From: a virus
IMG/VR virus record: IMGVR_UViG_3300045988_180339
Location: 1-18,696 of that record
Direction: 5' to 3' (one strand)
Length of the DNA: 18,696 nt
This document shows positions 1-18,187 of this stretch, one piece after another (the stretch's first letter is position 1; every line of letters starts with the position of its first letter). Both the position numbers and the translations under genes were made by a program. The notes beneath the pieces were generated by a model. That model saw only the letters and a program-made list of their open reading frames with translations, was not told where the DNA came from and did not search any database.

Positions 1-5
1 TAGTA

Positions 6-37
6 AACAATATCCAACTTATTTCCCCCAAATAATA
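6..37 (+). repeat. ITR-internal ~30-bp direct repeat copy 1 (AAcAATATCCAACTTaTTTCcCCCcAAAtAATA)
   Basis: Imperfect direct repeat of 129-158 inside the same ITR (core AATATCCAACTT identical). Possible iteron or origin-protein binding site. Confidence 0.6.
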
Positions 38-128
38 ATACCCACAGTATGACCCCACAAAAACACAACCCACTTTCTTTAACCCACATAAGCACAACAC
101 AAACTAACCACAACAAACTGCACCACAA

Positions 129-158
129 AATAATATCCAACTTTTTCGCCCAAAATAC
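129..158 (+). repeat. ITR-internal direct repeat copy 2 (AAtAATATCCAACTTtTTTCgCCCAAAAtA), abutting the -35 element
   Basis: Matches 6-37 with few mismatches. Ends 1 nt before the -35 hexamer of the ITR promoter, so it could double as an operator. Confidence 0.6.
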
Positions 159-187
159 TAGACATCACTTTACACACCTGATATAGT
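159..187 (+). promoter_or_regulatory. Inward-facing sigma70-like promoter inside left ITR: -35 TAGACA (159-164), 17-nt spacer, extended -10 TGaTATAGT (179-187)
   Basis: Near-consensus hexamers with exact 17-nt spacing and a TGn extended -10. Followed about 60 nt later by SD GGAAGGAG (241-248) and ATG 255-257, the last 3 nt of the ITR. Confidence 0.55.
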
Positions 188-254
188 GGTCACTGTCAGC
201 AAGGCAAGGCACCCGGCGATGGGCTTGGGTGCGCTGTTTGGAAGGAGCAGGATT

Positions 255-320
255 ATGGAAATCAAAGAAGCTGTTATCAAAAGCGCGTTGTATCCGTTTG
301 CACTTCAAGTGCTGGGGTAG
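255..320 (+). CDS. 21-aa leader ORF (MEIKEAVIKSALYPFALQVLG) initiated by the ITR-borne SD+ATG
   Basis: Best SD in the region (GGAAGGAG, 6-nt spacer) sits before ATG 255 and stops at TAG 318-320. Immediately followed by a second SD GAGGAGGA (322-329) plus ATG 336 (7-aa ORF). Could be a leader peptide, or the N-terminus of a frameshifted gene. Confidence 0.3.
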   Translation: MEIKEAVIKSALYPFALQVLG

Positions 321-369
321 TGAGGAGGACATCGAATGCTTCAAGTCTCTTATCGATGACAGTTCCGAC

Positions 370-696
370 ATGGCTGGTTACTGCATATCGTTTAGCGGTA
401 GTCGTGACATTGTTAATATGGATCCGACAGTATACAAATTAGACGGTATGACTATTTTCGAATGGAGAAAAGAGAACCGAGCGTTAGCCGCCAGGGTTCG
501 GGAGCTTGAGAGCAGTTACGATCGCGTGATTGATTACAACCATGCACTTACGGTAAACCTGGTTAGCGCGTTAAATGCAAAACCCGACTATGCCGAGTTG
601 CACGCTTTTATTGCTGATTTTGAGAAGTGTATTCTGGACATTTCCGAAGCTATCAATGGAGCGATTGAGGTGGTGAGAGCACATGAAACCAAATAA
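370..696 (+). CDS. Hypothetical early protein (108 aa from ATG 370; ORF open from GTG 229; alternative ATGs at 418 and 448)
   Basis: Long open frame 229-696 with coding-like codon use but no convincing SD at any in-frame start. Contains the motif AELHAFIADFEK shared with the 858-1067 protein. GC about 45%. Confidence 0.4.
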   Translation: MAGYCISFSGSRDIVNMDPTVYKLDGMTIFEWRKENRALAARVRELESSYDRVIDYNHALTVNLVSALNAKPDYAELHAFIADFEKCILDISEAINGAIEVVRAHETK

Positions 697-853
697 CACC
701 CAATACGATATCGGTTACCAAAACGGATACGATGACGGCTATTCCCGAGGATTCTCCGCAGGCTATAGAAAAGGTGCCGATAAGGCGGAGGAGATAAGCA
801 GGCAAAAATTCCAAGACTACGATAGGCGCTACGAGTACCCAAGATGGAGGTGA
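683..853 (+). CDS. Small Tyr/Gly-rich early protein, 56 aa (MKPNNTQYDIGYQNGYDDGYSRGFSAGYRKG...)
   Basis: ATG 683 preceded by GAGGTGGTGAG. Overlaps the stop of the previous ORF. Not in the ORF track (short). GYQxGY motif shared with the next gene. Confidence 0.5.
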   Translation: MKPNNTQYDIGYQNGYDDGYSRGFSAGYRKGADKAEEISRQKFQDYDRRYEYPRWR

Positions 854-857
854 TAGC

Positions 858-1067
858 ATGCCAACGTTCGACAAGGAGAACTCGATAGCATACGTCCGAT
901 ACATCGAGGAGAACTGCCCGCACGTGGACGTTTTCCGAAAGCAAATCGGCAACAGCGGCGTGTACGTTCTGATAGCCGACGGCAACACGTTGTTCGACAC
1001 TTCCGAGCTGCACGCCTTCGTGGCGGGTTATCAGAAGGGATATATGAAGGGTAAGGCTTATCGGTGA
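858..1067 (+). CDS. Hypothetical early protein, 69 aa
   Basis: SD GGAGGTGA 7 nt upstream of ATG 858. C-terminus SELHAFVAGYQKGYMKGKAYR combines the ELHAF(I/V)A motif of ORF 370-696 and the GYQxGY motif of ORF 683-853. Confidence 0.65.
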   Translation: MPTFDKENSIAYVRYIEENCPHVDVFRKQIGNSGVYVLIADGNTLFDTSELHAFVAGYQKGYMKGKAYR

Positions 1068-1255
1068 AGCTGAAGAAACTGATTCCACTGCTCAAGGATG
1101 ATTTCCTCGTCTGCGATTTAGACGAGGGTCTTACTTGGACAGTTGATAGCCACTTTGCAACCGAGGATAATTCGACGGTTTCAAATCAGCTTGAAAAGAA
1201 AATTATCTCGGTTTCCTCTTTCTATGACCAGGTTTTGGTCAGAGTTAAGTTATAA
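1064..1255 (+). CDS. Hypothetical protein, 63 aa, GTG start, in a low-GC (~42%) island
   Basis: GTGA overlap with the upstream stop. Weak SD (AAGGGTAAGG). Clear composition drop relative to the flanks. Confidence 0.4.
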   Translation: MKLKKLIPLLKDDFLVCDLDEGLTWTVDSHFATEDNSTVSNQLEKKIISVSSFYDQVLVRVKL

Positions 1256-1288
1256 TGTCAAAGTGACGTTTGAAAAGGAGGTGATTAA

Positions 1289-1516
1289 ATGATTCGCCGT
1301 AAAATGACCACCACTATTTGCGATGTGGTAACGCCTGATGGGGAGATGCTCGGCGAGGCGTCCTATTACGGCAAAATCAGCCCTGCAAGGCTCGCCAAGG
1401 TGGCGCGTCGGCTGTACAAGAACCAGCTCGCCACTATCACGAACTACCGAACTGTGCAGGAAACTTACGAGATGGAAGAGGAAGCTTTCATCGCAAACGC
1501 AACCAAAGTAGACTAA
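1289..1516 (+). CDS. Hypothetical early protein, 75 aa (basic N-terminus MIRRKM)
   Basis: Strong SD AAGGAGGTGA 7 nt before ATG 1289. Confidence 0.7.
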   Translation: MIRRKMTTTICDVVTPDGEMLGEASYYGKISPARLAKVARRLYKNQLATITNYRTVQETYEMEEEAFIANATKVD

Positions 1517-1531
1517 GAGAAGGAGCAAACA

Positions 1532-2005
1532 ATGACCGCAGAGTTCTATGAAGAGGAACAGGCCATCGCAACCCAGCAGGCTGCAGCCCAGCTTGCCAAC
1601 GGAAACGGCTTCGCGCAGAAGATCGTGCAGGAAGTGAACGAGCAGGGCTTCTACACCACGCTCGACATCTCCACCATGGCAGGAAAGAAGACGCTCTACA
1701 GCGCGACCAACGCGAGCGTGCTTCTCCGCGATTTCATGGAGACTCCGCTTGCGATTGCGAACATCACGTTCGCCCCGTCGGAAATCAGCGACGAGGACGG
1801 CAACCCGCTCACCACGCTCGGTGTCTTCCTCACCGACGAGAACGGCACCACATACAGCTCAACCTCCACGGGCGTTCTCAAGTCGGCTATGCGCATCCTC
1901 GCCAACTTCGGCGAGCCTACCGATTGGGGCGAGCCGCTCACCGTCGTGTGCAAGGAGACCAACACCAGCAAGGGTCGCCGCTACAAGTTCCTCGACGTGG
2001 AGTAG
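1532..2005 (+). CDS. Acidic 157-aa early protein; candidate SSB or DNA-binding replication accessory protein (by position only)
   Basis: SD GAGAAGGAG before ATG 1532. Sits directly upstream of the terminal protein/DNA polymerase gene pair. Followed by a GC-rich hairpin cluster. No motif recognised. Confidence 0.7.
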   Translation: MTAEFYEEEQAIATQQAAAQLANGNGFAQKIVQEVNEQGFYTTLDISTMAGKKTLYSATNASVLLRDFMETPLAIANITFAPSEISDEDGNPLTTLGVFLTDENGTTYSSTSTGVLKSAMRILANFGEPTDWGEPLTVVCKETNTSKGRRYKFLDVE

Positions 2006-2026
2006 CGCGAACTTGCGTGATATCCT

Positions 2027-2119
2027 GGGAGCGTGCGCTTAGGCCGCGCTCCCTCAAAGGGCGCGCCTTAGGGCGCGCCCTTCGTATCACAGCATAAACA
2101 AAGCCCGCTTGCGCGGGCT
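2027..2119 (+). promoter_or_regulatory. Cluster of three GC-rich hairpins between ORF 1532-2005 and the terminal protein gene (candidate U-tract-less terminator/attenuator or RNA processing site)
   Basis: Hairpin 1 is 2027-2033/2047-2053 (GGGAGCG/CGCTCCC). Hairpin 2 is 2057-2067/2072-2082 (AAGGGCGCGCC-tta-GGCGCGCCCTT, perfect 11 bp). Hairpin 3 is 2102-2108/2113-2119 (AGCCCGC/GCGGGCT), just before SD AAAGGAGCAGG. Confidence 0.45.
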
Positions 2120-2138
2120 GGAAAAAGGAGCAGGCATC

Positions 2139-3353
2139 ATGGCGAGGAAGAGAACGGAACTCGATAAGAAGATATCCCGCGCTCAGAAGAATGCCCGAAA
2201 CAAACTATACCGCATCCGTAAAAAGGGCGCAATCAACAGCGAGGAGTTCGACCCTCGCGTCTCCCAGGCAGAGATTAAGCATATGAACGGCTCGCAGAAG
2301 AAGGCATATCTCAGGAAGCTTGAACTGTTCAATGGCCGTGCGAACAAGGTTATCGTGCAGCCTGGAAACGGGATAGCGATTCCCGAGACCAAGCTCAAGG
2401 CGTACAGGCAGGCGGAGCTAGAGCTAAACGCCGCACGCATCATCCGAAGGGCTGGAATAGAGGAGGCGGTGAAGTCGGCGGCGGTTCTCGACATCTCCAG
2501 GATTCAGAAGACGGTGAACAAGGAGATAGCCAGGCGCGAGCGGGCGGAGAAGCTAGGCAAGCCGTACAAGCCGCTCAAGAAGTCGGTTGAGTCTATGCGC
2601 GGCATGCCCGTGAACTGGAACAAGCTTGACATCGACTACCTGGCTAAAGCTCAGAGCTACTACGACCCCGTGTTCAAGCAGTGGAAGCCGGGGGAGCGGA
2701 ACAAGTTCCAAGACCTCGTGCCAATCTGGATGCGCGAGTCCTTCCCCTCCGTGAAGTCGGTAGAGGAGCAGACCAGGAAGGCGAAGGAGGCAAAGGAGCG
2801 AATAAAGGTCGCCAGGAAGCGCTACCCGCAGTACCGAGAGGCGCTCATCGAGAAGGCCATGTTCTCGGGTTACCCCGAGCTTGCCGAGGCGATACGCGCG
2901 CTCACCTACGCGCAGCTCGATTACCTGCACTACTACACGGATTTCGACGCTTGGGGATCGTTCTTCTCGTCGTCGAAGGGCTATATCGCGGGAAATCAGG
3001 CGCTGTTCGAGGAGCAGCGCGACCAGACGGACGATGCTGCCGCGCAGATGATGGCGGAGATTCTGCGGGCGAGGCGCATAAGGCCCGGGCAGTCTGGAAT
3101 ATCGAACATCACTTACAACAAGGAATGGCGCGGCGAGAGGGGCTTTGCGAAGGCGGGCGGAAATCTCGGAAGCACCGGACTGGACCCCGATATCGTCGAT
3201 ACGATGAGCAGGGCGTCCATATCAGGCTCGCGACTCGGGTTCAGGACGTCCATCTTCGACTACAAGGAGAGCAAGGCGGAATCGGCAAACAGCGAGCGCA
3301 TGCTGCATGAGCTTTCCTACGAGATCGCGCGCCAGATAAGGCACGGGAAATGA
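2139..3353 (+). CDS. Putative terminal protein (TP, 404 aa), translationally coupled to the DNA polymerase
   Basis: SD AAAGGAG precedes ATG 2139 (the upstream ATG 2109 lacks an SD). Very basic N-terminus (MARKRTELDKKISRAQKNARNKLYRIRKKG). Stop overlaps the polymerase start (ATGA at 3350-3353). In phi29/Cp-1-like genomes the TP gene immediately precedes the polymerase. Confidence 0.55.
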   Translation: MARKRTELDKKISRAQKNARNKLYRIRKKGAINSEEFDPRVSQAEIKHMNGSQKKAYLRKLELFNGRANKVIVQPGNGIAIPETKLKAYRQAELELNAARIIRRAGIEEAVKSAAVLDISRIQKTVNKEIARRERAEKLGKPYKPLKKSVESMRGMPVNWNKLDIDYLAKAQSYYDPVFKQWKPGERNKFQDLVPIWMRESFPSVKSVEEQTRKAKEAKERIKVARKRYPQYREALIEKAMFSGYPELAEAIRALTYAQLDYLHYYTDFDAWGSFFSSSKGYIAGNQALFEEQRDQTDDAAAQMMAEILRARRIRPGQSGISNITYNKEWRGERGFAKAGGNLGSTGLDPDIVDTMSRASISGSRLGFRTSIFDYKESKAESANSERMLHELSYEIARQIRHGK

Positions 3354-5041
3354 TAGAGTACGCGAGCGACTTCGAGACCACGACGCAGGCCGATGACTGC
3401 CGCGTTTGGGCCTGGGGGTGCGCAAAAGCGTGCGGTGAGCCAGAACCGACGTTCGAGAGCGGTACCGATATCGATTCGTGGCTTGCGCACGTCAAGTCGA
3501 ACCCAGGCCGATACTGGTTCCACAACCTGGGATTCGACTCCCGCTTCGTCATGTGGCACCTGCTCAACTCAGGGTGCGAATGGGTGGAGAAGAAGCCGGT
3601 GGAAGGCCAGTTCTCAACCGTCATAGACAACATGGGAAAGATATACTCGCTAGAGATAGGCAACGAGGGCGGGAAGCTTGTTCTGGCTGACAGCTTCAAG
3701 AAGATTCCGATGAGCCTCGAGAGCGTCGCCCAGGCGTACGACCTGCCCATGTCGAAGGGCGATTTGGACTACGAGGCCTACCGAGAGGTCGGGCACGTGC
3801 TGACGGACGAGGAGATGGACTACCTGTACCGCGACGTGCTGATACTCGCAAGGGCGATGCACAAGCGACTCGAAGTCGGAACAAAGCTCACCACGGGCGC
3901 AGATTGCCTTGAAACCTACAAGGACATCATAGGCAAGGACCTATGGAACAAGTGGTTCCCCCACCTCAACCCGATACTCGACGGCGAGATTCGCCAGGCA
4001 TACCGAGGCGGATACGTGTACTGCAACCCGCTGCACCAGGGGCAGGTCGTAGGAAAGGGGATAGCGCTGGACGTCAACTCTCTTTACCCGTGGGTCATGA
4101 GAACGGCGCTGCTCCCCTGGGGCATGCCGAAGCGAGGGCGCGGCAAGCCGAAGGAGAGCAAGGATTTCCCGCTTTGGGTCGCGGAGGTGCAGTTCGACGC
4201 GACGTTGAAACCCGGGAAACTTCCCTGCATACAGATGAAGAACAACATGTTCTACCGCGATAGGGAGTACATACGCGAGACGGTAGAGCCTATAGACCTC
4301 TGGGTATCGTCGGTAGACTGGAAGCTCATATGCGACATGTACGAGGTCACCGTGTACGCGTGGGGAGCGCATTACCTGTTCCACGGTGCCAAGGGCATGT
4401 ACAACGATTACGTGGATTATTGGATGGCAGAGAAGATCGCGGCGGGCAAGGAGGGAAACCGCGCGAGGCGGCAGAACTCCAAGCTGTGCCTCAACAACCT
4501 GTACGGCAAGTTCGGTCAGAAGGTGGAGGTGCAGGGCAAGGTTCCCGTGCTCGATGCCGACAAGGTTCTCCACCTGCTGCCAGGCGACAAGGGAGAGCGC
4601 GATCCCGTGTACATCCCAAGCGCGGTGTTCATCACCGCATGGGCGAGGGACAAGACGATACGCACCGCCTGCGAGTTCGGGGACAGGTACCTTTACAGCG
4701 ACACCGACTCCATCAAGGCGCTGGGAACGGACATTCCAGACGATGTGCACGTGGACGATTACGAGCTTGGCGCATGGGCGTTGGAGCAGACGTTCGACAA
4801 GGGCATCTTCCTGCGGGCGAAGACCTACGCCACCTACTCCGACGGGCTTTGCGAGTACATATGCGCGGGAATGCCGAACAGCCTCAAGGAGGTCATGCGC
4901 TTCGATGACTTCAGGGTGGGATTCACCACGCTCGGCAGCGACAACCCCGATTACGCGAACAAGGACAACTGGAAGCTCGTGCCGCAGAACGTGCCCGGCG
5001 GTTGCGTGCTGGTGCCAAGGCCGTTTACAATACACGGATAG
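3350..5041 (+). CDS. Protein-primed family-B DNA polymerase (phi29 gp2-like, 563 aa)
   Basis: Exo I DFETT (aa 7-11), Exo II YWFHNLGFD (56-63), Exo III YLYRDV (158-163), YxGG AYRGGY, motif A DVNSLYP (241-247, identical to phi29), motif B KLCLNNLYGKFG (378-389), motif C YSDTDS (449-454), KxY KTYA (491-494). Size close to phi29 gp2. Confidence 0.95.
   Translation: MIEYASDFETTTQADDCRVWAWGCAKACGEPEPTFESGTDIDSWLAHVKSNPGRYWFHNLGFDSRFVMWHLLNSGCEWVEKKPVEGQFSTVIDNMGKIYSLEIGNEGGKLVLADSFKKIPMSLESVAQAYDLPMSKGDLDYEAYREVGHVLTDEEMDYLYRDVLILARAMHKRLEVGTKLTTGADCLETYKDIIGKDLWNKWFPHLNPILDGEIRQAYRGGYVYCNPLHQGQVVGKGIALDVNSLYPWVMRTALLPWGMPKRGRGKPKESKDFPLWVAEVQFDATLKPGKLPCIQMKNNMFYRDREYIRETVEPIDLWVSSVDWKLICDMYEVTVYAWGAHYLFHGAKGMYNDYVDYWMAEKIAAGKEGNRARRQNSKLCLNNLYGKFGQKVEVQGKVPVLDADKVLHLLPGDKGERDPVYIPSAVFITAWARDKTIRTACEFGDRYLYSDTDSIKALGTDIPDDVHVDDYELGAWALEQTFDKGIFLRAKTYATYSDGLCEYICAGMPNSLKEVMRFDDFRVGFTTLGSDNPDYANKDNWKLVPQNVPGGCVLVPRPFTIHG
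5002..5031 (+). promoter_or_regulatory. Candidate internal promoter for the lysis cassette: TTGCGT-18 nt-TACAAT inside the 3' end of the polymerase gene
   Basis: Hexamers 4/6 and 5/6 to consensus, about 12 nt upstream of SD GGGAAGGGAGGTGA and the holin ATG 5059. Confidence 0.25.
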
Positions 5042-5058
5042 GGAAGGGAGGTGATTCA

Positions 5059-5436
5059 ATGGCAGTTTTTCAAGGTTTGGACTGGTACGCGGTCATCGCG
5101 GCTCTTCTATTCATCCTGTTCGACTTCGCGACGGGGATTGCCAAGGCCGCTTATTTTAAGCAGGTCTCATCGACCGTCATGCGCGAGGGACTCTACCACA
5201 AGTTCGCGGAGATTCTCGTCATCGTGCTGGCAGGCGTAATCGACGTCGCATGCGAGCACCTGGAATTGGGGTTCGACACGCCGATTCTAGCGGTGACATG
5301 CGCCTACATCGTTCTCATGGAGGTTGCAAGCATACTTGAGAACATCGGGGCGATGAACCCCGATCTGGCAAACAGCCCCGTTTTCTCTATTTTCAAGAAG
5401 GAAGGCACAACAAATGGCAAGCATTCGGGGAATTGA
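5059..5436 (+). CDS. Holin (125 aa, three predicted TM segments)
   Basis: Strong SD GGGAAGGGAGGTGA. Hydrophobic stretches WYAVIAALLFILFDFATGIA, FAEILVIVLAGVIDVA and ILAVTCAYIVLMEVASILENIG. The SILEN-type motif and hydrophilic C-tail are typical of a phage_holin_4-like family. Immediately upstream of, and overlapping, the endolysin gene. Confidence 0.7.
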   Translation: MAVFQGLDWYAVIAALLFILFDFATGIAKAAYFKQVSSTVMREGLYHKFAEILVIVLAGVIDVACEHLELGFDTPILAVTCAYIVLMEVASILENIGAMNPDLANSPVFSIFKKEGTTNGKHSGN

Positions 5437-6313
5437 CGTGAGCTCGAACCAGCCCGCGGACATCTGCTCGCTGGTAGATTACGATTTCGCGATTGTGAAG
5501 GCTACGGGGAACCCGCCCGGCTACGCGTGGAACTACAAGAACCCGTACATGGAGCAGCAGGTGGACGATGCGCTCGGAAAGACGGGGTGCGCGGGGCTTT
5601 ACCACTTCACGTTCGGGCGCGCCGCCAAGGAGGAGGCGGACTTCTTCTGCGACACGGTGGCCGATTACGCGGGGCGCGCAATGCTGGTCATCGACTACGA
5701 GGGGCAGGCTATCGACAACGGGCGCGAATGGCTTCGCACGTTCGCGCAGCGCATCAAGTACCGCACGGGCGTCAACCCCGTAGTGTACGCGTCAAGCTCG
5801 GTAATTCGAGACCAGGATTTGGAGTCCTTGGCCGAAGAGGAGGATTTGTCTCTTTGGAGCGCGAACTACTGGCGCGGCTACGATACCGTGTACGGCTACG
5901 ACACGAGCGGGATGAAACAGGATATCCCGTCGAGCGCGCTCTGGCAGTTCACCAGCCAGGGAGTGCTCGAAGGCTACGACGGGTACCTTGATTTGGACTT
6001 GTTCTACGGGGATTACGACACGTGGCAGAAATACTGCGCACCGAGCCAAACGCCCGCAGAACCTGAGGAACCAAGCGACCCGGAAGGAGGAAACATGCTA
6101 ACGGAACATCAAGATAGGCTTCTGGCCGTTATTTACGAACAGGTCACGGGCACATACGACCCTACGGGTCGCGGTATCGCGCTCTGCGACCACGACCACA
6201 TCAAGTGGATTGGAAAGCAGACGGCAGACAACGGCGCTGCAATCGAGGACTTGAAGGCTCGGATGGACTCCATCTCCGACAAGCTGGACGTGCTTCTGTC
6301 AGCCAAGGGCTAG
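5414..6313 (+). CDS. Endolysin: N-terminal GH25 muramidase (Cpl-1-like), Pro/Glu-rich linker, ~90-aa C-terminal domain of unknown type
   Basis: GIDVSSNQ, YHFTFG, EEADFFCDTV, LVIDYEG, LWSANY, LWQFTS, LDLDLFYG match the conserved blocks of pneumococcal phage lysozyme Cpl-1 / GH25. Linker is PSQTPAEPEEPSDPEGG. No choline-binding repeats. Confidence 0.85.
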   Translation: MASIRGIDVSSNQPADICSLVDYDFAIVKATGNPPGYAWNYKNPYMEQQVDDALGKTGCAGLYHFTFGRAAKEEADFFCDTVADYAGRAMLVIDYEGQAIDNGREWLRTFAQRIKYRTGVNPVVYASSSVIRDQDLESLAEEEDLSLWSANYWRGYDTVYGYDTSGMKQDIPSSALWQFTSQGVLEGYDGYLDLDLFYGDYDTWQKYCAPSQTPAEPEEPSDPEGGNMLTEHQDRLLAVIYEQVTGTYDPTGRGIALCDHDHIKWIGKQTADNGAAIEDLKARMDSISDKLDVLLSAKG

Positions 6314-6332
6314 CTTCGAGTCAAGCACTCGG

Positions 6333-6365
6333 CGGACAGCGGCCTCAAGCTCGGCGCGCTGTCCG
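6333..6365 (+). other. 9-bp GC hairpin (CGGACAGCG / CGCTGTCCG, 15-nt loop) 20 nt after the endolysin stop; flanked by direct repeat TCAAGC(A)CTCGGCG
   Basis: Seen directly: 6333-6341 pairs with 6357-6365. TCAAGCACTCGGCG (6321-6334) and TCAAGCTCGGCG (6345-6356). Confidence 0.4.
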
Positions 6366-6394
6366 GCATGCAACCAAATATCCCTCCGGGCTGT

Positions 6395-6439
6395 AAGACG
6401 CAGGCACGCGCAGTATACGCGGCCTGCGTCTTTTCTTCT
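6395..6439 (+). terminator. Rho-independent terminator ending the rightward early/replication/lysis transcription unit
   Basis: 11-bp stem AAGACGCAGGC (6395-6405) / GCCTGCGTCTT (6422-6432), 16-nt loop, followed by TTCTTCT. Confidence 0.65.
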
Positions 6440-6810
6440 GCTCGCCGTTCCGCGCCACGCGGACACGAGGTGCTCATCGCCGCACTTGCAAACGGAAACC
6501 TCTATGTCGCACTCCGCTCCCCGCCTGTCCGAATCGGCCTTCACAGCGACTGCCCAGGCGCGGTTCCCGAAACCGCCCTCTAAAATTACGCGCTCCATGT
6601 TCTGCTCCTTTCATTTCCACCGAAATTATGCCACAATGTAAGCGCTGGAGAAGTCCCGTTTCTCTGCCAGTAGCGTAATTCGGGACAGCGGGCCTTGCGG
6701 CCACCGAGGCGCGGTTTCAGGCTGGGGACTTTGAGCAGACTGCGGGTGACTTCCGAGCAACAAAAGACCTGAAACGGGAAGTCTCGCGACTGAACCGTTT
6801 CAGGTCGATT
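6440..6810 (+). ncRNA. Non-coding region with stable hairpins; candidate packaging RNA (pRNA) and/or late-operon leader
   Basis: No ORF with an SD on either strand across about 370 nt in an otherwise gene-dense genome. Contains the 12-bp hairpin 6766-6806 and the repeated GTTTCAGG motif. A gp16-like ATPase and gp10-like connector are present, and phi29-like motors use a pRNA. Assignment is inferential. Confidence 0.3.
6766..6806 (+). promoter_or_regulatory. Perfect 12-bp hairpin GACCTGAAACGG / CCGTTTCAGGTC (17-nt loop) immediately upstream of the scaffold gene SD
   Basis: Seen directly. GTTTCAGG also occurs at 6714-6721 and can pair with the same CCTGAAAC arm (6769-6776), giving mutually exclusive structures. 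Confidence 0.5.
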
Positions 6811-6827
6811 TAGTTTAGGAGGCAAGA

Positions 6828-7133
6828 ATGGATTTCGACGAGCTGCTCAAGCAGTACGACAACATCCACGACACCGAGGGCATCCCCGGTTTCCGCGAGA
6901 CGCTGGTGTCGTACGGCCAGAGCGTCGGGCAGATCTCCGAGGGAGCCAACGCCCGCATCAGCGAGCTAGAGACCGCTCTGGCTGCAGCGGAGGAGAAGGC
7001 TACGAACCTCGCTGCAAGGAACTACGAGCTTATCATCGCGGCGACCGCCCAGGAAGCGGCGGAGGAGAAGCCGACCGATGAGATCACCGACGAGGACAGG
7101 GACGTGAAGACCCTGTTCGGAAAGAAGGAATAA
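6828..7133 (+). CDS. Head scaffolding protein (101 aa, acidic, coiled-coil-like)
   Basis: SD TTTAGGAGG. Ala/Glu-rich heptad-like segment ISELETALAAAEEKATNLAARNYELIIAATAQEAAEEK. Directly precedes the major capsid gene, as phi29 gp7 does. Confidence 0.6.
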   Translation: MDFDELLKQYDNIHDTEGIPGFRETLVSYGQSVGQISEGANARISELETALAAAEEKATNLAARNYELIIAATAQEAAEEKPTDEITDEDRDVKTLFGKKE

Positions 7134-8597
7134 ATGGGAGATGCAATCCTGCAGGCGGACAACGCCGCAATCATCAACAAGGTGCGCGCCAACGCGAGCC
7201 TCGAATACCAGTCGCGAATCCCCGCGGTAACGCAAGCCAACCTGTCCAAGACGTTCGCCACGCTGCAGGCTTACCCGCTGATGTGGAACGAGTTCATGGA
7301 CGTGCTCATCAACCGAATCGGACTCACGCTGTTCAACCAGAACAGCTTCACGAACCGTCTGAAGCCGCTCAAGTCGGGCGCTATGAACTACGGCGGCATG
7401 ATTCAGGAGATCGGCGCGAACCTGCTGCACGCGGAGTCCTACGACCCGAACGACACCAACGTGTTCGGCGGCGAGAAGGCGGACGTGGAGGTGAACTACC
7501 ACCAGATCAACCGACGCGACAAGTACAAGATGCGCGTGAACAACGACCTTTTGGAGGAGGCGTTCCTGAACGACGGGCAGCTTGCGGAGTTCGTGAACAA
7601 CCTGCTGTCCCTCCCGCAGAAGTCCGACGAGTGGGACGAGTACATCATCATGCGCGGCCTGCTCAAGAAGTACCAGGAAGCGGACGGCTTCTTCAACTAC
7701 CAGGTGCCTGACTTGGGAGCGTCCGCAGACCCCGAGGCCGACGGCAAGAAGATCACCGAGCTGCTCCGAGAGGTGTACCTCGACACCAAGGGCTTCTATA
7801 GAACCAAGTACAACGCGCTCGGCATGCAGGTAGCTCCCGAGGAGCTCATCCTTCTCGGCACGCCGAAGTTCTTCGCGAAGCTCGACGTGAACGTGCTCGC
7901 TGCAGCGTACCACATGGACAAGGCAGACTTCCTGGCAGACCGCACCATCGTGGTCGATGATTTCGAGATGCCCGGCACCCAGTGCATGTTCCTCGACAGC
8001 AACTGGTACAAGTGCATGGACACCAAGCTCAAGACCACGAACATGTACAACCCGTCTGCAGACGAGTGGACTTACTACCTCCACCACTGGGGCGTGTACT
8101 CCGCATCCCGTCAGAGCACGTGCATCCGCTTCTCGACCGATGCCGCGACGGCCGTCATCGGCCAGGCCCGCACGGTAACGGGTATCGCAGCGGCGCTCGA
8201 CCCGACGGTGGCAGGCAACAAAGTGCTCGAACCTGGCGCGGACGTCGCGTTCAAGGTGGCGGTATCCTACTCGGACGGAAGCTCCGACTCCAACGCCTAC
8301 GCTATCATCACGACCGAGGACGCGACCGCGCCGACCAAGCTCCCCGCGAACGTCGTGTACCCCGACACGGGAACCTACGTAGACCGCATGGGCGTGCTGC
8401 ACGTGTCCGACACGGCAGCGTTCAACAACCTGACCGTCACCTGGGTTTCAACCATCGACGCGACCAAGCTCGCGTCCGTGAAGCTCACGGCGGCCGATTC
8501 GGCGGTTGCGGCATCCGACGATTCCGCATCGACGCCGACCAAGGCCAAGGCCGTTTCCCGCGCGAAGGCCGTAAAGGCGGCAACCGAGGAAAAGTAA
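7134..8597 (+). CDS. Major capsid protein (487 aa) with a C-terminal Ig-like (BIG2-type) domain
   Basis: Largest structural ORF, following the scaffold gene. The C-terminal ~150 aa are Thr/Ala/Val-rich beta-sandwich-like (TVTGIAAALDPTVAGNKVLEPGADVAFKVAVSYSDGSSD...), as in phi29 gp8. Ends with a Lys/Ala-rich tail. Confidence 0.75.
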   Translation: MGDAILQADNAAIINKVRANASLEYQSRIPAVTQANLSKTFATLQAYPLMWNEFMDVLINRIGLTLFNQNSFTNRLKPLKSGAMNYGGMIQEIGANLLHAESYDPNDTNVFGGEKADVEVNYHQINRRDKYKMRVNNDLLEEAFLNDGQLAEFVNNLLSLPQKSDEWDEYIIMRGLLKKYQEADGFFNYQVPDLGASADPEADGKKITELLREVYLDTKGFYRTKYNALGMQVAPEELILLGTPKFFAKLDVNVLAAAYHMDKADFLADRTIVVDDFEMPGTQCMFLDSNWYKCMDTKLKTTNMYNPSADEWTYYLHHWGVYSASRQSTCIRFSTDAATAVIGQARTVTGIAAALDPTVAGNKVLEPGADVAFKVAVSYSDGSSDSNAYAIITTEDATAPTKLPANVVYPDTGTYVDRMGVLHVSDTAAFNNLTVTWVSTIDATKLASVKLTAADSAVAASDDSASTPTKAKAVSRAKAVKAATEEK

Positions 8598-10772
8598 ATG
8601 GGAAACCTGCTGAAAAGACTTCGCGGCGAGAACCCCGAGAACCTCAACGAGGACTCGGGGTTCACCCCTTATTCGTGGCCCACCGACTCGAAGGCCACGC
8701 TTTGCCGCGTGCCCTGGGACGCCGAATACCGCAACGTGGTGGACTGGCAAGACCAGCAGCACAAGGACAGCTACTTCTCATCGCTTGAATCAGATTCGTG
8801 CGAGCTCGGGTCGATGACGTACCTAAAGCCGAACGACCCGATCTTCGTGGACGTGCCGTTCTCGAAGGCGTACAGCTACAACTACATCGTCGTGGAGAAC
8901 CCCAAGCTCCCCGTTCCGGGAGAGGTGGAGCCGCGCAAGCTCTACTACTTCGTGACGGCGGTAGGCTACGTCGCGCCGAACACCACCTCGATAGCGGTGC
9001 AGCTCGACGTGTGGACGACTTACGGCGACACCGCCGAGTTCGGGCGCTGCTTCGTGGAGCGAGGGCACGTGGGAATAGCGGCCGAGATGAGCAAGCCGAC
9101 GCCTACGGCGGATAAACTGGGACCAGCTCGTTCGAAGGTGTACCGACGCTACCTCACGGCTGCCGAGGGTTTGGACATCGGCAACGAGTACCTGATCGGG
9201 GACGTTGACGCTTTCAGCATCGCCGACTACGACCATGGGTGGGCGGTGGTCATCATGAGCACCACCGACCTTTTGGCCGATTGGGGCACTCTCAGCAACC
9301 CGTCCATGACAACTGCGGACGGCCAGGTTACGGACGGCCTGATAGGCGGGTGCAACGTCTACTCGCTGTCGACCGCCGATTTCAGGCAGTTCATGAAGAA
9401 CATCCGCAACTATCCCTGGGTTGCGAAGGGAATCATCAGCGTAACGGCGTTTCCGAAGGCGCTTCTAACGGACGGGCCCTCTGTGGACAAGGACGGCGTC
9501 ACCCTGTACTTCCTGGGGACGACGCCCGACAAGGGCTTCTACCGTGAAATCGACGATGTTTGGGAGCGATTATCGAAGTCGATTCCAGATCGTTACCGCA
9601 ACCTGCACAAGCTGCTGTGCTATCCGTACTCGGTCATCGAGCTGAACACCTACAACGGAAGCCCTGTGCTTCTGAAACCCGAGCTGCTCAACACCGACAC
9701 GCTCAGGCTCAGGAACATCTCGTGCGCCGTGCCGGGGCACATCAAAATCGGGTTCTACCCCTGGGCATACGACAGCGAGCGCCTCGTGCTGAACGAGTAC
9801 GGCCTGCCCGTGGTGTCGGCTACGATGGACGACCCGACGGTGAACCTGCCTGTTTCGGGTAACTCGCTCGACTCGTGCGTTTGGATGCAGGAAATGCCGA
9901 AGTTCTCGCTTGTGAACGACAACTACCTCAACTACCTCGCTTCCACCACGCATACCCGCGAATGGCAGTACAACTCGGCCGGATGGCAGCAGGCGAAGTC
10001 GAACGCGAGCGCCCACCTGTCGTATGACCAGGCGCAGCAGCAGATAGCGACGAACCGCGCCAACTGGAACGCATCGACGCGGGGCTTGCTGGGCAACGTG
10101 GCGGGCAACATCGGGAACCTTGCGATGAGCGGTGCGGACGCCCTCGGCATAGGCGGCGCGGTAAGCGGTGCGGCCGACTTCGCGAACGGCGTGCTGGGAA
10201 CGGTATCGGGCGCTATCGGTGCTACGGGCTGGGACAACATGCAGGGCATCGTGAACAACCTCACGGGCCTTACCGAGCTGAACAACAACCAGGCCCTGCA
10301 GGGCAACATCGCCTCGCAGAACCTCGACCTGGCCCAGTGGGCGGCGCAGGGAGACTACGAGAACGCGATCGCCAAGATAAACGCGACCGTGCAGGACGCG
10401 GCGCTCACAGCTCCATCGGTCATCGGCCAAGCAGGCGGCAGCGGGTTCTCGATGTCGAACGGCCTCTTCGTCGTGCAGACTAGGTTCAAGACCATCGACC
10501 AGAACCACATGCACATCATCGGCGAGTATTGGCTAAGGTACGGCTACGCGGTGCGCGAGTTCATGGTGCCGCCAGCCGACCTCTGTTGCATGGAGCACTT
10601 CACCTACTGGAAGATGCTGGAGACGAGCGTGGAGTGCGCGCTCGCCGACGAGACGTCTAAGGAGACCATCAGGGGAATATTCGAGAAGGGCGTCACCGTG
10701 TGGAGGAGCGCCGACGAGATAACCACGTGGGACTTATCGGACAACGACCCGATTTTGGGCGATTACTACTAA
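8598..10772 (+). CDS. Tail knob / distal tube protein (phi29 gp9-like, 724 aa) with a Gly-rich hydrophobic loop
   Basis: Position between the capsid and connector genes, as for phi29 gene 9. Gly-rich segment GLLGNVAGNIGNLAMSGADALGIGGAVSGAADFANGVLGTVSGAIGATG (nt about 10080-10230), like the membrane-active loop of gp9. C-terminal GVTVWRSADEITTW resembles the gp9 end. Confidence 0.6.
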   Translation: MGNLLKRLRGENPENLNEDSGFTPYSWPTDSKATLCRVPWDAEYRNVVDWQDQQHKDSYFSSLESDSCELGSMTYLKPNDPIFVDVPFSKAYSYNYIVVENPKLPVPGEVEPRKLYYFVTAVGYVAPNTTSIAVQLDVWTTYGDTAEFGRCFVERGHVGIAAEMSKPTPTADKLGPARSKVYRRYLTAAEGLDIGNEYLIGDVDAFSIADYDHGWAVVIMSTTDLLADWGTLSNPSMTTADGQVTDGLIGGCNVYSLSTADFRQFMKNIRNYPWVAKGIISVTAFPKALLTDGPSVDKDGVTLYFLGTTPDKGFYREIDDVWERLSKSIPDRYRNLHKLLCYPYSVIELNTYNGSPVLLKPELLNTDTLRLRNISCAVPGHIKIGFYPWAYDSERLVLNEYGLPVVSATMDDPTVNLPVSGNSLDSCVWMQEMPKFSLVNDNYLNYLASTTHTREWQYNSAGWQQAKSNASAHLSYDQAQQQIATNRANWNASTRGLLGNVAGNIGNLAMSGADALGIGGAVSGAADFANGVLGTVSGAIGATGWDNMQGIVNNLTGLTELNNNQALQGNIASQNLDLAQWAAQGDYENAIAKINATVQDAALTAPSVIGQAGGSGFSMSNGLFVVQTRFKTIDQNHMHIIGEYWLRYGYAVREFMVPPADLCCMEHFTYWKMLETSVECALADETSKETIRGIFEKGVTVWRSADEITTWDLSDNDPILGDYY

Positions 10773-10784
10773 GGAGGTGCAGCT

Positions 10785-11822
10785 TTGAGCAAGGCAATCA
10801 AGCAGCGCGAGCTTGTTGACTGGCCTGACGAGATGGACCAGATGTACGGGCGCAACTGGGTGCGAAAGATGTTCACCGCAGCCGAGCGGTTCGACCTGAT
10901 GCAGTACCGCCACTGGCTCTGGTACCTGGAATCGCTGGCAATCGGCGCTTTCAAGTGGAGCAACGTACCCGCTGGAATCGACGCGAGGGCGATCGAGTAC
11001 ATCCTGCTGCACTTCGGGCAGGGAGCTTTGTTCATGGACGAGGGCGGCATGCTGTTCGCGGCCGCAGCTCCCGCCGACAACATCAACATGTACTGGAACC
11101 CGAACAAGATCATGCTGACCGCTCCGAACGGCCAGACGTGGGAGCGCCATTGCGAGAGCTGGGTTATGGCAGACGGCGATGGCGGCCACCGCGTCATGCA
11201 CCGCGACGCCGTCATGTGCTTCGACAACATGCGTCGCTTCCCGCTCTACGCGGACATCAGGAACTACGCAAGGCGTCTCGCGAGAATCGACGCCATCCTC
11301 GACGTGAACCACGGCGCGCAGAGAACGCCGTACATCGTAACCGGCAGCGAGGAGGGGAAGAACTCCCGCCGCGACGTCATCAGAAAGCTGGAGAGCAACG
11401 ACCAGTACATACAGATGAACAGCGAGCTATCGGGCAACTTGGGGATGGTGGACGTGCTGCAGACCGTCGCGCCCTACGTGGCCGACAAGCTGCTGTCGGA
11501 CAAGCAGAAGATTCTCAACGAGGCCGTTACCATGCTTGGAATCGACAACACCAACAACGAGAAGCGCGAGCGCATGATAGACGCCGAGGCGACGTCCAAC
11601 AACGAGCAGATAATGGTCATGCGCAGGAACCGCCTTGAGGAGCGAAGGAAGTTCTGCATCAAGGCGAACACCATCTTCCAAGACCTCGACATGTGGGTCG
11701 AATGGGGCGTTCCGCACGAGCGCACGGACATCGACGCGAAGCCGCTCGGCGGCAAGCAGTCGGAAGACGGCGAATCCAAGCCGAAGGGCGGCAGCGCCCC
11801 GACGGGAGGCGATGAGGAATGA
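10785..11822 (+). CDS. Head-tail connector / portal protein (phi29 gp10-like, 345 aa), TTG start
   Basis: SD AAGGAGGTG 6 nt before TTG 10785. YLESLAIGAFKWSNVPAGIDARAIEYILLHFGQGALFMDE aligns with phi29 gp10 [39 protein letters not shown]. Acidic Gly-rich C-tail. Confidence 0.85.
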   Translation: MSKAIKQRELVDWPDEMDQMYGRNWVRKMFTAAERFDLMQYRHWLWYLESLAIGAFKWSNVPAGIDARAIEYILLHFGQGALFMDEGGMLFAAAAPADNINMYWNPNKIMLTAPNGQTWERHCESWVMADGDGGHRVMHRDAVMCFDNMRRFPLYADIRNYARRLARIDAILDVNHGAQRTPYIVTGSEEGKNSRRDVIRKLESNDQYIQMNSELSGNLGMVDVLQTVAPYVADKLLSDKQKILNEAVTMLGIDNTNNEKRERMIDAEATSNNEQIMVMRRNRLEERRKFCIKANTIFQDLDMWVEWGVPHERTDIDAKPLGGKQSEDGESKPKGGSAPTGGDEE

Positions 11823-12382
11823 TATACACCGACGAGGCACCGACCCTGTACGACGTCGTGAACCTCTACGGAGAGGACTACGCGGGAGCTATGGCCGACT
11901 ACCCTATCTGGGACGAGTCGATGAGGGCATGGCTCAACAACCGCATCTACGAGAAGTTCGCGTTCAGGGAGATAGGCGTTGACACGCCCGCGAAGTTCCT
12001 GTTCTTCCTGCGCCGCCGCATGCACGACATGATGCCGACCGTGAACCCCATGTTCGCGGCGTTGGAGGACGTTGACATCCTGGAAGGATACGAGACGTTC
12101 GACGACGCGTCGGCAGATTCGAAATCGAGCGCCGAGCAGGCCAACCTCTACTCGGCGACGCCGCAGACGCAGCTCTCGAACGCGAAGAACTACGCGACGA
12201 ACCTCACGCAGACGGAGGGCGAGAACATGGGCGAGAGCACGCAGAAGGCGCGCCACTACGGCCGCAGCGGCACCGTCGGCGACATGGTGGGCAACTGGGC
12301 GATGAGCGTGAACAACGCGCTCTACATCGTCTACAATGGCATCGAGCCTTTGTTCAACCAGATATGGAAGGAGGACTTCTAA
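11819..12382 (+). CDS. Structural protein, 187 aa (candidate lower collar / adaptor by position)
   Basis: ATGA overlap with the connector gene. SD GGGAGG upstream. No motif recognised. Confidence 0.5.
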   Translation: MIYTDEAPTLYDVVNLYGEDYAGAMADYPIWDESMRAWLNNRIYEKFAFREIGVDTPAKFLFFLRRRMHDMMPTVNPMFAALEDVDILEGYETFDDASADSKSSAEQANLYSATPQTQLSNAKNYATNLTQTEGENMGESTQKARHYGRSGTVGDMVGNWAMSVNNALYIVYNGIEPLFNQIWKEDF

Positions 12383-12988
12383 ATGGCACTTTGGCAAGAC
12401 AAGTGCAACCGCCTCGACTTCGCGTACAGAGGGTACCAGTACCCCGTGCCGCCGTCATGGAAGTACGCGGTGCGCCTCGAAGACCAGATCCAATGGCTGT
12501 TGCAGGCTATCCTCAAAGCGGCGGACGAGGCTGTGTCGGCAGGCGACCTGATGGACTTCAGAAACGAGATGTACGATTTCATCGACCGCGTGGCGGCGGC
12601 GCTGGAAGAGGAAATCGATGAGTATTCGCAGCGGCGCGCATGGTGCTGCTCGCCAGTGGACGGAGCATTGCGCTCGATGGGCGTGGTCGCCCGCCAAGTC
12701 TACGATGCGGCGCGTCCGCTGGCGATGAGGTACAGGGAGTTCGACGAAATCGGAATGACGTACGACGCGCTCAAGGCAGAGGGCAGGAAGTACAACGACG
12801 TTGACTTCCATAGCAACCTGTACTGGGGCAACGGCAACCTGTTGGCGAACACCACGCCCGCCGAGGCTATTTCAGACCCCGTCGCGGGGGAGCCTGGAGC
12901 GTGGAACCCGACAGGCGGCGGTTACTCGAAGGGAACCACCTACTCGCAGATAAACGAGAACGGGTTCATGTACCGGAAGGAGGCGTGA
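12383..12988 (+). CDS. Structural protein, 201 aa (tail/collar-associated, unknown)
   Basis: Strong SD GGAAGGAGG before ATG 12383. Lies between the connector and fibre genes. Confidence 0.6.
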   Translation: MALWQDKCNRLDFAYRGYQYPVPPSWKYAVRLEDQIQWLLQAILKAADEAVSAGDLMDFRNEMYDFIDRVAAALEEEIDEYSQRRAWCCSPVDGALRSMGVVARQVYDAARPLAMRYREFDEIGMTYDALKAEGRKYNDVDFHSNLYWGNGNLLANTTPAEAISDPVAGEPGAWNPTGGGYSKGTTYSQINENGFMYRKEA

Positions 12989-12989
12989 C

Positions 12990-13967
12990 ATGGCACTTCC
13001 TACTTTCGAGTACGACAGGCGAATCGACATCGTGGACGCGCTGAACGAGCTTTCCACCGCAGCCGATGCGGCCATCGAAGCGGGAGGCGGCTCTAGCAGC
13101 TACGTCCTCCCCGTTGCCGCTGACGCCGTGCTGGGCGGCGTAAAAGGCCAGCGCGTGGAAGAGAAGGACGGCAACGGCAGGATCGTGCAGGTAACGCCCG
13201 ACGGAACCGCCTTCATCGACGCAGCCGACGCGCTGAACCCAGGCGTCGTGCGATCCAAGGAAGGCAATTCGTTCGCCGACACCGATGCAAACATCGCCGT
13301 CAACGCGCACGGCTACATGAAGTGCGACGCTCCCAAGGCCTACGTCGATGCGCAGGTTGCGGGCGTGGAGGCGCACCTGGAAGCGTTCGAGGCGGAGGCC
13401 GTCACGCAGGCCGAGGGGGCGAACGCCATCCAAGCGACTATCGCGCCTACGGAGAGCGCCGGCTCGAAGCTGACAGTCTCGCTCAAGTACGGCACAGGGC
13501 TTGCCGTGCAGAACGGAACCCTCGTGGCAACGGGAGGCGGAGAGGTTACGCAAAAAGTCGTTTCCTTAGCCGCTAATGAAACATTGCCGTTAGGCAATTT
13601 AACGATGCAGGTTGAGCGCAATGGAATTTACTTCGTCACTGTAAGCCAACAGCAAAGATTCGACGCACTGCTGATAAACGCAGTGTTTGCCGTATCATCA
13701 GAATTAGCTGGCCCCGGGTTTAACTTTACATGCCCTAACAGTAACAAAGCTACAAAATGGGTTGTCAACAGCATAGAAGCACCTGATTTAATTAGAACGC
13801 AATTCAAGGTGCCAGTTTTAGGGGGATACGTTCAAAGAGACGTAGAATCGTATACTAATACATACGCCGTCTGCAATGCTTCCGAAACATCGTTATTTAT
13901 CTCTAGTTTCTCAAGCAGCAAAAAATCCTTTTATATGTATCCTCTCACTGTGGTCAGATATCATTAA
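12990..13967 (+). CDS. Receptor-binding tail fibre / appendage protein 1 (325 aa) with a low-GC C-terminal head domain
   Basis: SD GGAAGGAGG. N-terminus (LPTFEYDRRIDIVDALNELSTAADAAIEAGGGSSSYVLPVAADAVLGGVKG) is paralogous to the N-terminus of the next gene and carries a phage-fibre-type repeat (GGVKG...VTPDG). Nucleotides about 13555-13967 drop to ~41% GC. Confidence 0.65.
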   Translation: MALPTFEYDRRIDIVDALNELSTAADAAIEAGGGSSSYVLPVAADAVLGGVKGQRVEEKDGNGRIVQVTPDGTAFIDAADALNPGVVRSKEGNSFADTDANIAVNAHGYMKCDAPKAYVDAQVAGVEAHLEAFEAEAVTQAEGANAIQATIAPTESAGSKLTVSLKYGTGLAVQNGTLVATGGGEVTQKVVSLAANETLPLGNLTMQVERNGIYFVTVSQQQRFDALLINAVFAVSSELAGPGFNFTCPNSNKATKWVVNSIEAPDLIRTQFKVPVLGGYVQRDVESYTNTYAVCNASETSLFISSFSSSKKSFYMYPLTVVRYH

Positions 13968-13977
13968 GGAGTAAACC

Positions 13978-14850
13978 ATGCCAACCAACAACTACAGCCT
14001 TCCCACCATCTCGGGCGAAGAGGTAATCGACATCGTAGGGGACATGAACGCGCTCGCGAACGCGACCGACGCCGCCTTGAAGAAGGTGGAGCAGGGCGGG
14101 CTCGACCAGTACGTTCTCCCCACGGCGACGCGCACCGTAAAGGGCGGCGTCATCGTCGGAGACGGGCTTTCCATCACCCCCGGCGGCGTCCTGTCCGCCG
14201 TCTCGCAGGGCGGGGGCGGCACGGCAACCATGCCCGTAGCAACGTCCGTCACCCTCGGCGGCGTCAAAATCGGCGCTGGAATCACCGTAACGCCCGACGG
14301 AACCATCTCGGTGCCCGCGTCATCGAGCATCGAGGACGGCGCGGTTACGTCCTCGAAGCTTGCGAGCGGAGCGGTGACGGCCGACAAGCTGAGCGCCAGC
14401 GCGGTTACCACGGTCAAAATCGACAACGGCGCGGTGACCGAGGGCAAGATCGCGAACGGGGCCGTCACGTCCTCCAAGCTCTCTAGCGACGTATCGGAGG
14501 ACATCAGCAGCGCCAAGTCGCAGGCGGCGAGCGCTTACCAAGGATGGAGCGGGTCGCCGACACGCGCAGGCTCCTTCTCCTCAGGGCAGGGTACTATCGA
14601 ATGCTGGGGCAAAGTCGTTGTAGTCCATTGCGAGCAAATCACCGTTGCAAGCGCCTCTAAAACTCTTGTCGGAACTGTTTCAGGCGCATATAGGCCTATA
14701 AGCGAAACTACGGGCGTCGTTGGCGCTATCGGCGGTTCTGGAACTGTCAGCGCCTTCATTAAAGTGGAGACGGGCGGCAACATCTACATCAACCCCGGCT
14801 CTGCAGCGGGGCTTAACTGGACTGGCACGCTCGTGTACCTCATCAGCTAA
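13978..14850 (+). CDS. Receptor-binding tail fibre / appendage protein 2 (290 aa) with fibre repeats and a 5x tandem ~11-aa repeat
   Basis: SD AAGGAG. N-terminus YSLPTISGEEVIDIVGDMNALANATDAALKKVEQGGLDQYVLPTATRTVKGGV parallels protein 1. Repeats GGVIVGDGLSITPGGVLS and GGVKIGAGITVTPDGTISV. Then (G)AVTxxK(L/I)xxx five times. The C-terminal ~110 aa are unrelated to protein 1 and lower in GC. Confidence 0.65.
   Translation: MPTNNYSLPTISGEEVIDIVGDMNALANATDAALKKVEQGGLDQYVLPTATRTVKGGVIVGDGLSITPGGVLSAVSQGGGGTATMPVATSVTLGGVKIGAGITVTPDGTISVPASSSIEDGAVTSSKLASGAVTADKLSASAVTTVKIDNGAVTEGKIANGAVTSSKLSSDVSEDISSAKSQAASAYQGWSGSPTRAGSFSSGQGTIECWGKVVVVHCEQITVASASKTLVGTVSGAYRPISETTGVVGAIGGSGTVSAFIKVETGGNIYINPGSAAGLNWTGTLVYLIS
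14335..14490 (+). repeat. Five tandem 30-33-bp coding repeats (GAVTSSKLAS / GAVTADKLSAS / AVTTVKIDNG / AVTEGKIANG / AVTSSKLSSD)
   Basis: Seen directly in the nucleotide sequence (gcggttacg.../gcggtgacg.../gcggttacc.../gcggtgacc.../gccgtcacg...). The period is consistent with a fibrous shaft. Confidence 0.8.
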
Positions 14851-14853
14851 GCC

Positions 14854-16155: not shown

Positions 16156-16186
16156 AAAGCGTCCCTCGGAAATGAAGGTTATCAAC

Positions 16187-17799: not shown

Positions 17800-17800
17800 T

Positions 17801-18186: not shown

Positions 18187-18187
18187 T

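Follow-up and report, generated by a model that had tools for sequence, protein, structure and literature searches.

Long inverted terminal repeats of an uncultured phi29-like podophage very probably carry a duplicated early promoter, leader and ribosome-binding site

The Streptococcus phage Cp-1 (Salasmaviridae, Cepunavirus; NC_001825) is a protein-primed phi29-like podophage with a long inverted terminal repeat (ITR), annotated at 1–236 (236 bp), and with genes running inward from both ends. In each of these respects it resembles the genome described here. The Cp-1 record places early promoters in and beside the ITR, PE1 and PE2 on the left and PE4 and PE5 on the right. Their -35/-10 pairs lie at 222–227/245–250 and 316–321/339–344, with exact mirrors at the right end, and start sites are annotated at 351 for PE1, at the mirrored 351 for PE4, and at the mirrored 257 for PE5. 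The ribosome-binding site (RBS) and first ATG are nearly mirrored as well (376 on the left, 375 on the right). The two Cp-1 ends are 97.7 per cent identical over 352 nt, and this identity stops about 7 nt before the RBS.

Actinomyces phage Av-1 (Dybvigvirus; NC_009643) is among the closest cultured relatives of our genome, with a DNA polymerase that is 40 per cent identical and with the same gene order. Its record gives a -35/-10 pair at 206–211/232–238 and a mirror pair at the right end, both inside an imperfect ITR and annotated as signals only, without start sites. The Av-1 ends match at 95 per cent up to nt 210, with weak similarity as far as about nt 260, and the first inward genes begin at 285 on the left and at the mirrored 270 on the right. 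In phi29 itself, the early promoter C2 lies near the right genome end and fires inward, as is predicted for the genome described here. Unlike in our genome, however, the phi29 ITR is only 6 bp long, so that the promoter is not duplicated, and the left early operon is transcribed outward. C2 is repressed by p6, a protein that is also active in DNA replication (PMC11476376). The PRD1 record contains no promoter features, and a full-text search gave no usable statement on promoters in the PRD1 ITR.

The stretch of DNA that we analysed, referred to below as the window, is 18,696 bp long and has the gene content of a phi29-like protein-primed podophage. Matches above the cut-offs to PF25622, PF05352, PF20934, and PF05894 identify the phi29-type capsid, connector, tail knob, and gp16 packaging ATPase, and a GH25 endolysin is also encoded. 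The SSB and polymerase genes are listed in Table 1, together with a putative terminal protein gene, an ORF directly 5' of the polymerase gene that had no family match. Almost all genes run rightward, from nt 255 to 17260, and four small genes at the right end run leftward. A terminator-like hairpin (17287–17302), which would end both the right unit and the long plus-strand unit, separates these four from the packaging ATPase gene; the same hairpin was the source of weak Leu_leader matches in Rfam. No cultured phage matched when the whole window was searched at near identity, and the nearest polymerases, about 40 per cent identical, belong to Curtobacterium phages, Av-1, Glutamicibacter phage Voltaire, and Arthrobacter phage Mendel. 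Because of its gene content, its gene order, and the distance to these nearest polymerases, the window is taken to come from an uncultured phi29-like podophage with a gene order of the Cp-1/Av-1 type and to be all or nearly all of its genome. With a perfect 257-nt ITR on 18,696 bp, it also has the form of a linear genome of about 17–20 kb with ITRs.

Although the genome encodes a gp16-type ATPase, no Rfam match to a packaging RNA (pRNA) was found in candidate regions at E values up to 10. The pRNA model of Rfam is based on Bacillus phages and may be too narrow for the present group. In Av-1, a pRNA is annotated on the plus strand of the right arm (16295–16402). We rejected the idea that the ITR transcript is itself the packaging RNA, given the lack of an Rfam pRNA match and the fact that the transcripts of the two ends would be common for only about 60 nt. 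Elsewhere in the window, a strong hairpin, AAAGCCCGCTTGCGCGGGCT, is found at 2097–2120, just 5' of the putative terminal protein gene. It scored below threshold against a CRISPR repeat model and has a 3' T-run on the minus strand only, where no genes occur. The GC content falls to 0.47 at 13501–14100, which covers the 3' part of ORF 12990–13967 and the start of the tail-fibre-like ORF 13978–14850; this stretch is possibly an exchanged receptor-binding segment.

Table 1. Features of the window, ordered by position; -35, -10 and Shine-Dalgarno elements are predicted.
Feature	Positions	Strand	Remarks
Left ITR	1–257	+	100% complementary to 18440–18696
Outer ITR module	1–158		Mirror 18539–18696; G-poor: 6 G in 158 nt, A+C 76%
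-35 TAGACA	159–164	+	Mirror 18533–18538, minus strand
17-nt spacer	165–181	+	Read from sequence
TGn extension	179–181	+	Read from sequence
Extended -10 TGaTATAGT	179–187	+	Mirror 18510–18518, minus strand
-10 TATAGT	182–187	+	Read from sequence
11-mer GTCACTGTCAG	189–199	+	Mirror 18498–18508; spans predicted start, just 3' of -10
Leader hairpin GCACCC-N12-GGGTGC	209–232	+	Mirror 18465–18488
Shine-Dalgarno GGAAGGAG	240–247	+	Mirror 18450–18457
Start codon ATG	255–257	+	Innermost triplet of left ITR
First left gene, frameshifted	255–696	+	21 codons from ATG 255 to TAG 318–320
phi29-type SSB	1532–2005	+	Downstream of left cassette
Putative terminal protein	2139–3353	+	Assigned by position only
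Protein-primed family B DNA polymerase (PolB)	3350–5041	+	PF03175, E = 1e-59; phrog_1907, E = 1e-128
Bidirectional intrinsic-terminator-like hairpin	17287–17302	both	GC-rich, T-runs on both strands
Conserved 163-aa gene	17308–17799	-	Right transcription unit
Third right gene, 44 aa	17801–17935	-	Hydrophobic by eye
Second right gene, 84 aa	17932–18186	-	Right transcription unit
First right gene, 84 aa (MRYTVKTLEG...)	18188–18442	-	ATG is innermost triplet of right ITR
Right ITR	18440–18696	-	100% complementary to 1–257

An earlier note on this DNA had claimed that the identity of the two ends stops right after an ATG, and this is what we found: the repeat closes with the ATG triplet, and nt 258 is the first at which the ends differ. 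The 100 per cent identity of the two copies is not independent evidence, because de Bruijn assembly collapses both copies of a repeat, but the inner branch point of the ITR is. At the outer edge, relatives carry two or three more terminal bases (TG before TAGTAAAC in contig c141537, GTG before TAGGAAAG in c000072), so the true ends of the window may be slightly longer, and the window is probably without its very last nucleotides. The Av-1 genome begins TGTGTCTGTG.

It is highly improbable that the perfect 257-bp repeat and its edge are products of assembly, whether by repeat collapse or through a chimeric end. The collapse of copies does force 100 per cent identity, and a frameshift in a run of Gs (see below) hints at sequence errors. 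Several relatives also have terminal repeats of only 41, 55, or 79 nt, exact lengths that resemble assembler overlaps; we infer that these are k-mer-sized overlap stubs that keep the inner edge of a longer repeat. A length of 257, however, is not among the common default assembler k values, which range from 21 to 141, and an ITR of the same content, 235 bp long, occurs independently in contig c141537. Moreover, the branch point is set by two different genes, both supported by homologues, and long ITRs are real in the cultured phages Cp-1, Av-1, and Voltaire.

The 257 bp of the ITR make up two modules, an outer one of about 158 bp and an inner one of about 100 bp. The outer module is poor in G (Table 1), and the composition of 159–257 is balanced. 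Imperfect repeats occur in the outer module at a spacing of about 28 nt (5–37, 33–65, 61–93), and a fourth copy at 128–160 abuts the -35. Given the protein-primed PolB and what is known of the phi29 family, the outer module is presumed to be the protein-primed replication origin and a protein-binding region. Its repeats are candidate sites for a terminal-region protein, which could possibly couple origin function to promoter control. In phi29, p6 acts by binding the terminal origin regions, and its action at C2 offers a possible parallel for the repeat copy that abuts the -35; no p6 homologue was identified in the window. When the whole ITR was folded as single-stranded DNA, the structure was unremarkable (z = +0.53). 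The ITR also contains a 45-aa ORF (49–186; mirror 18511–18648) that overlaps the promoter and is without a Shine-Dalgarno sequence (SD). This ORF is probably an artefact, because the G-poor sequence has few stop codons.

A sigma-70-type -35/-10 pair is found on the inward strand inside the repeat, and hence at both ends of the genome. TAGACA-17-TGaTATAGT is the best match of this type in the genome. Four genome sites match the consensus at 10/12 positions, with the TGn extension present only in the ITR site and its mirror. Using 20,000 first-order Markov simulations of ITR composition, we estimated P ~0.0012 for a 10/12 site with TGn on the inward strand of a 257-nt stretch. The genome-wide consensus scan was not enriched over shuffles (nine sites versus 6.6 expected), and for this reason the case for a promoter rests on the single site, its TGn, and its conservation. 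The positions claimed previously for TAGACA (159–164), the 17-nt spacer, TGaTATAGT (179–187), and the ATG (255–257) were all the same when re-read. The SD was the exception: placed earlier at 241–248, it is found one base further left, at 240–247. An outward promoter-like site (TTGATA-17-CATAAT, 252–280 on the minus strand) is present at the left end only and is probably due to chance, because its -10 is the complement of the ATTATG start context.

Scans of metagenome and genome collections with a promoter-core pattern gave no match, probably because the ITR is missing from most assemblies. Searches with the tail protein recovered relatives instead. The same-clade set consists of four IMG/VR contigs and several ENA contigs, with polymerases that are 78–95 per cent identical to that of the window and tail proteins that are 69–97 per cent identical. 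A much more distant genome, L040 (RBWB01581942), was recovered as well. Its tail protein is 35 per cent identical, and its perfect 541-bp ITR (1–541 and 17364–17904) holds a promoter-like site at 332–360 and the SD GAAGGAGA.

Comparison of the window with the c000072 lineage shows the promoter block (159–199) to be the best-conserved segment of the ITR, at 78 per cent identity versus 25–64 per cent for the other segments. No aligned relative end departs from TATAGT. The c000072 contig has lost the TGn but has a -35 that matches the consensus TTGACA in full, two compensatory changes. The right copy of L034 no longer matches the left one and keeps a -10-like TATTAT. Changes of these two kinds are the pattern that would be expected of a functional promoter. 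The two L034 ends agree at all of the 33 nt that precede the ATG yet differ in the promoter, and the leaders of the relatives are mosaics of left-type and right-type patches.

These results bear on whether the ITR is a replication origin only, with promoter-like and SD-like motifs that are chance or non-functional and terminal genes that are expressed from elsewhere. The finding that promoter-like sites are about as numerous genome-wide as in shuffles would agree with this. We nevertheless consider it very unlikely, given the low P value for a 10/12 site with TGn in the ITR and the compensatory changes in the best-conserved block of the repeat. In addition, the right unit has nothing but the ITR upstream from which it could be transcribed, and the Cp-1 record annotates start sites at the equivalent position. 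The inner ITR is thus read as very probably a duplicated early promoter, leader, and RBS, where both 'early' and 'promoter' are terms that we infer from sequence for the ITR of the window.

Transcription is predicted to start at about 192–195, with a leader of about 60 nt. Segment 194–270 folds as RNA at -23.9 kcal/mol (z = -2.05), and the leader hairpin is found in the c141537, c140176, and L030 lineages and is deleted in c000072. Seven nucleotides separate the GGAG core of the SD from the ATG. GGAA/GGAG is conserved in close relatives, and the SD within the L040 ITR is similar.

The 11-mer that spans the predicted start, GTCACTGTCAG, is kept in close relatives. It also occurs once per contig, 26–36 nt from the left contig end, in eleven contigs of a distant group (L049, L051, L053, L055, L057, L085, L090, L092–L094, L098) with tail proteins about 34 per cent identical to that of the window, and there it lies 5' of another promoter-like site. 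The expected number of occurrences in the window is 0.23 at up to one mismatch. This 11-mer may be an operator or another protein-binding site. A one-mismatch copy is present at 13635–13645. For the ITRs of the distant group, a scan with its left-terminal 32-mer matched one end only.

At each end, the first gene inward lies directly downstream of the predicted promoter with an RBS of its own, though the left one is frameshifted. The ATG at 255 is followed by a stop after 21 codons, and a long ORF (229–696) runs in a different frame. In the alignment with metagenomic relatives, these are one base shorter here, and removal of one G from the run at 314–317 gives a 146-aa ORF that aligns over its full length with the c141537 protein. 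In relatives the ATG opens an intact gene, of 146 aa in c141537 and 151 aa in c000072. The window therefore carries a 1-nt frameshift, probably at the G-run, that may be a genuine lesion or may stem from a sequencing error in the homopolymer. As it stands, the left translation signals of the window serve a 21-aa peptide only. Programmed frameshifting was rejected, as the relatives use one frame and other lineages carry deletions. The gene is evidently dispensable, because internal deletions leave 70 aa of it in c140176/L036 and 20 aa in L030. The earlier note had described each ITR as a self-contained inward expression cassette. The promoter, leader, and RBS anatomy of the inner ~100 bp bears this out, but the left coding body behind it is frameshifted, which the note had overlooked.

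At the other end, the mirror copy precedes the 84-aa ORF on the minus strand, as had been claimed. Homologues of this first right gene occupy the same position in c148937 and L034, and its product had no family or PDB match. The 44-aa product of the third right gene is possibly a membrane protein. We compared the right arm of the window (17801–18442) with those of L030, L034, L036, L063, L064, and L096. Between the ITR and the conserved 163-aa gene there are one to three small genes, varying by lineage, and gene content here is hypervariable. The first right gene itself varies among lineages with a common leader. The window and c141537 right genes have ATGCGTTAC in common and then encode unrelated proteins. 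When c000072 is compared with L034, the first right gene has been lost exactly, through a deletion from ATG(CG) to ATG(CG) that joins the ATG(CG) of the ITR to that of the second gene. The proteins of the variable terminal genes gave no informative Pfam, PHROG, or PDB match.

The earlier note had also proposed comparing relatives to see whether the ITR always ends at an ATG. We expressed the position of the inner edge as an offset in nt from the first start codon at the left and right ends, with negative values for an edge before the start codon. The edge is exact (0/0) in the window and in c000072 and L034, where the repeat ends in ...GGAAATG and is followed by GTAGAT at the left end and by CGTACG or CGATAC at the right. 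Contigs L031 and L033 start right after those two ATGs and are consistent with 0/0. Four other lineages are offset. In L030 the edge lies at +4/+4, where both genes begin ATGGAAA; in L036 it lies at -3/-2 and in c148937 at -7/-6. In c141537 and L035 it lies at -24/-20, where the perfect ITR stops right after the leader hairpin and the SD regions beyond it are alike but not identical. In the distant L040, the edge is 1 nt before a left TTG start and overlaps the right ATG by 1 nt. Among the metagenomic relatives, then, the edge at either end falls within a range from 24 nt before the first start codon to 4 nt after it. An ATG-terminated repeat is exact for the window and the c000072 lineage and does not hold as a rule, and by the note's own test its proposal is in part refuted; the coincidence looks like a frequent by-product.

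Voltaire (L024), with a DNA polymerase about 40 per cent identical to that of the window, has a perfect 176-bp ITR that also ends at a coding boundary. Its terminal regions (1–184 and 18243–18418) hold an ITR whose inner edge falls on the gp26 stop codon at the right and 5 nt before that of gp01 at the left. Unlike in the window, the terminal genes of Voltaire run outward, so its ITR cannot be their expression cassette. Voltaire fits a repeat that fills the non-coding terminal region. The ITR of Mendel is only 16 bp long, which counts against such filling being universal.

One alternative is that the exact edge is selected or made by a mechanism, with the start codon as a preferred recombination junction, each end turned thereby into a plug-in slot for accessory genes, and homogenisation actively running to the ATG. 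The exact edges in the window and several contigs of the c000072 lineage, and the edge within 1 nt in the distant L040, speak for it. So do the ATG(CG)-to-ATG(CG) deletion between L034 and c000072, the likeness of the window and c141537 right genes over ATGCGTTAC only, and the hypervariable gene content beside the ITR. We find this alternative doubtful, however. The edge ranges from -24 to +4 among close relatives with the same leader, and the Voltaire edge behaves likewise at stop codons. Junctions that keep the start codon behind a common SD are also those that selection for retained translation would keep, which gives ATG-precise junctions with no special mechanism needed.

We think it likely that the best overall explanation is a repeat composed of an origin module and a promoter/leader/SD module, with the two ends homogenised up to their differing coding sequences. 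The anatomy, its conservation, and the positions of the boundaries are observed directly in these genomes; promoter activity, early timing, and the means of homogenisation are predicted from them. The inner ~100 bp would comprise a promoter for the host RNA polymerase (sigma-70/sigma-A type, with an extended -10), a leader hairpin, and an SD. Because the promoter module is part of the repeat, both genome ends would fire the same inward transcript head once the DNA enters the cell. The left transcript would lead into the dispensable first gene, small genes, and the genes for SSB, the putative terminal protein, and the DNA polymerase, and the right transcript would run through the four small genes as far as the terminator.

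Exchange between the two ends would then keep the repeat uniform by concerted evolution. The repeat would spread inward only while both ends tolerate identical sequence, that is, until differing coding sequences are reached, and its edge would come to lie at or just before the start codons because two different coding sequences begin there. Gene loss and replacement beside the repeat would occur at the start codon, and the repeat would provide an unchanging expression head in front of a variable first gene. An exchange of this kind fits the mosaic leaders, the 33 nt of identity between the L034 ends, and the ITR of Voltaire, which ends at stop codons. By analogy with adenovirus and further replicons of the protein-primed type, the exchange could proceed by template switching or by panhandle pairing of the displaced strand.

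A more speculative version, for which we have little confidence, treats the ends as plug-in slots. Here the promoter, leader, and RBS would evolve in concert, accessory early genes would be swapped precisely at the start codon, and GTCACTGTCAG would act as an operator-like site for co-regulation. The swapped accessory genes would then possibly be host-takeover or anti-defence genes.

This analysis documents, in a clade of uncultured phi29-like phages, long ITRs that are predicted to act both as replication origins and as duplicated early-expression heads. About nine related genomes show repeats that stop at the first coding boundary, and a reason for this is offered above. These results should aid the annotation of metagenomic contigs from protein-primed phages, whose ends assemblers truncate at this position, and they flag the gene adjoining each repeat as a variable early slot.

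For comparison with known systems, phi29 with its 6-bp ITR is the wrong comparator, and the long-ITR relatives are the right ones. The earlier note had suggested that the arrangement was without precedent. This does not stand, as the GenBank records of both Cp-1 and Av-1 annotate mirrored -35/-10 pairs at both ends, precedents that rest on the feature tables of these records. Deposited annotations thus already describe phi29-like phages with inward early promoters duplicated in their ITRs. Cp-1 has no detectable DNA similarity to the window and differs from it in having two tandem promoters per end and an RBS and ATG outside the repeat. In Av-1 the imperfect ITR fades within the promoter, and again unlike in the window, the repeat does not reach the SD and ATG. 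The principle is already seen in Cp-1 and Av-1, so the understanding of the family is unchanged. What the present clade adds is a matter of degree: its repeat also includes the SD and reaches the start codon.
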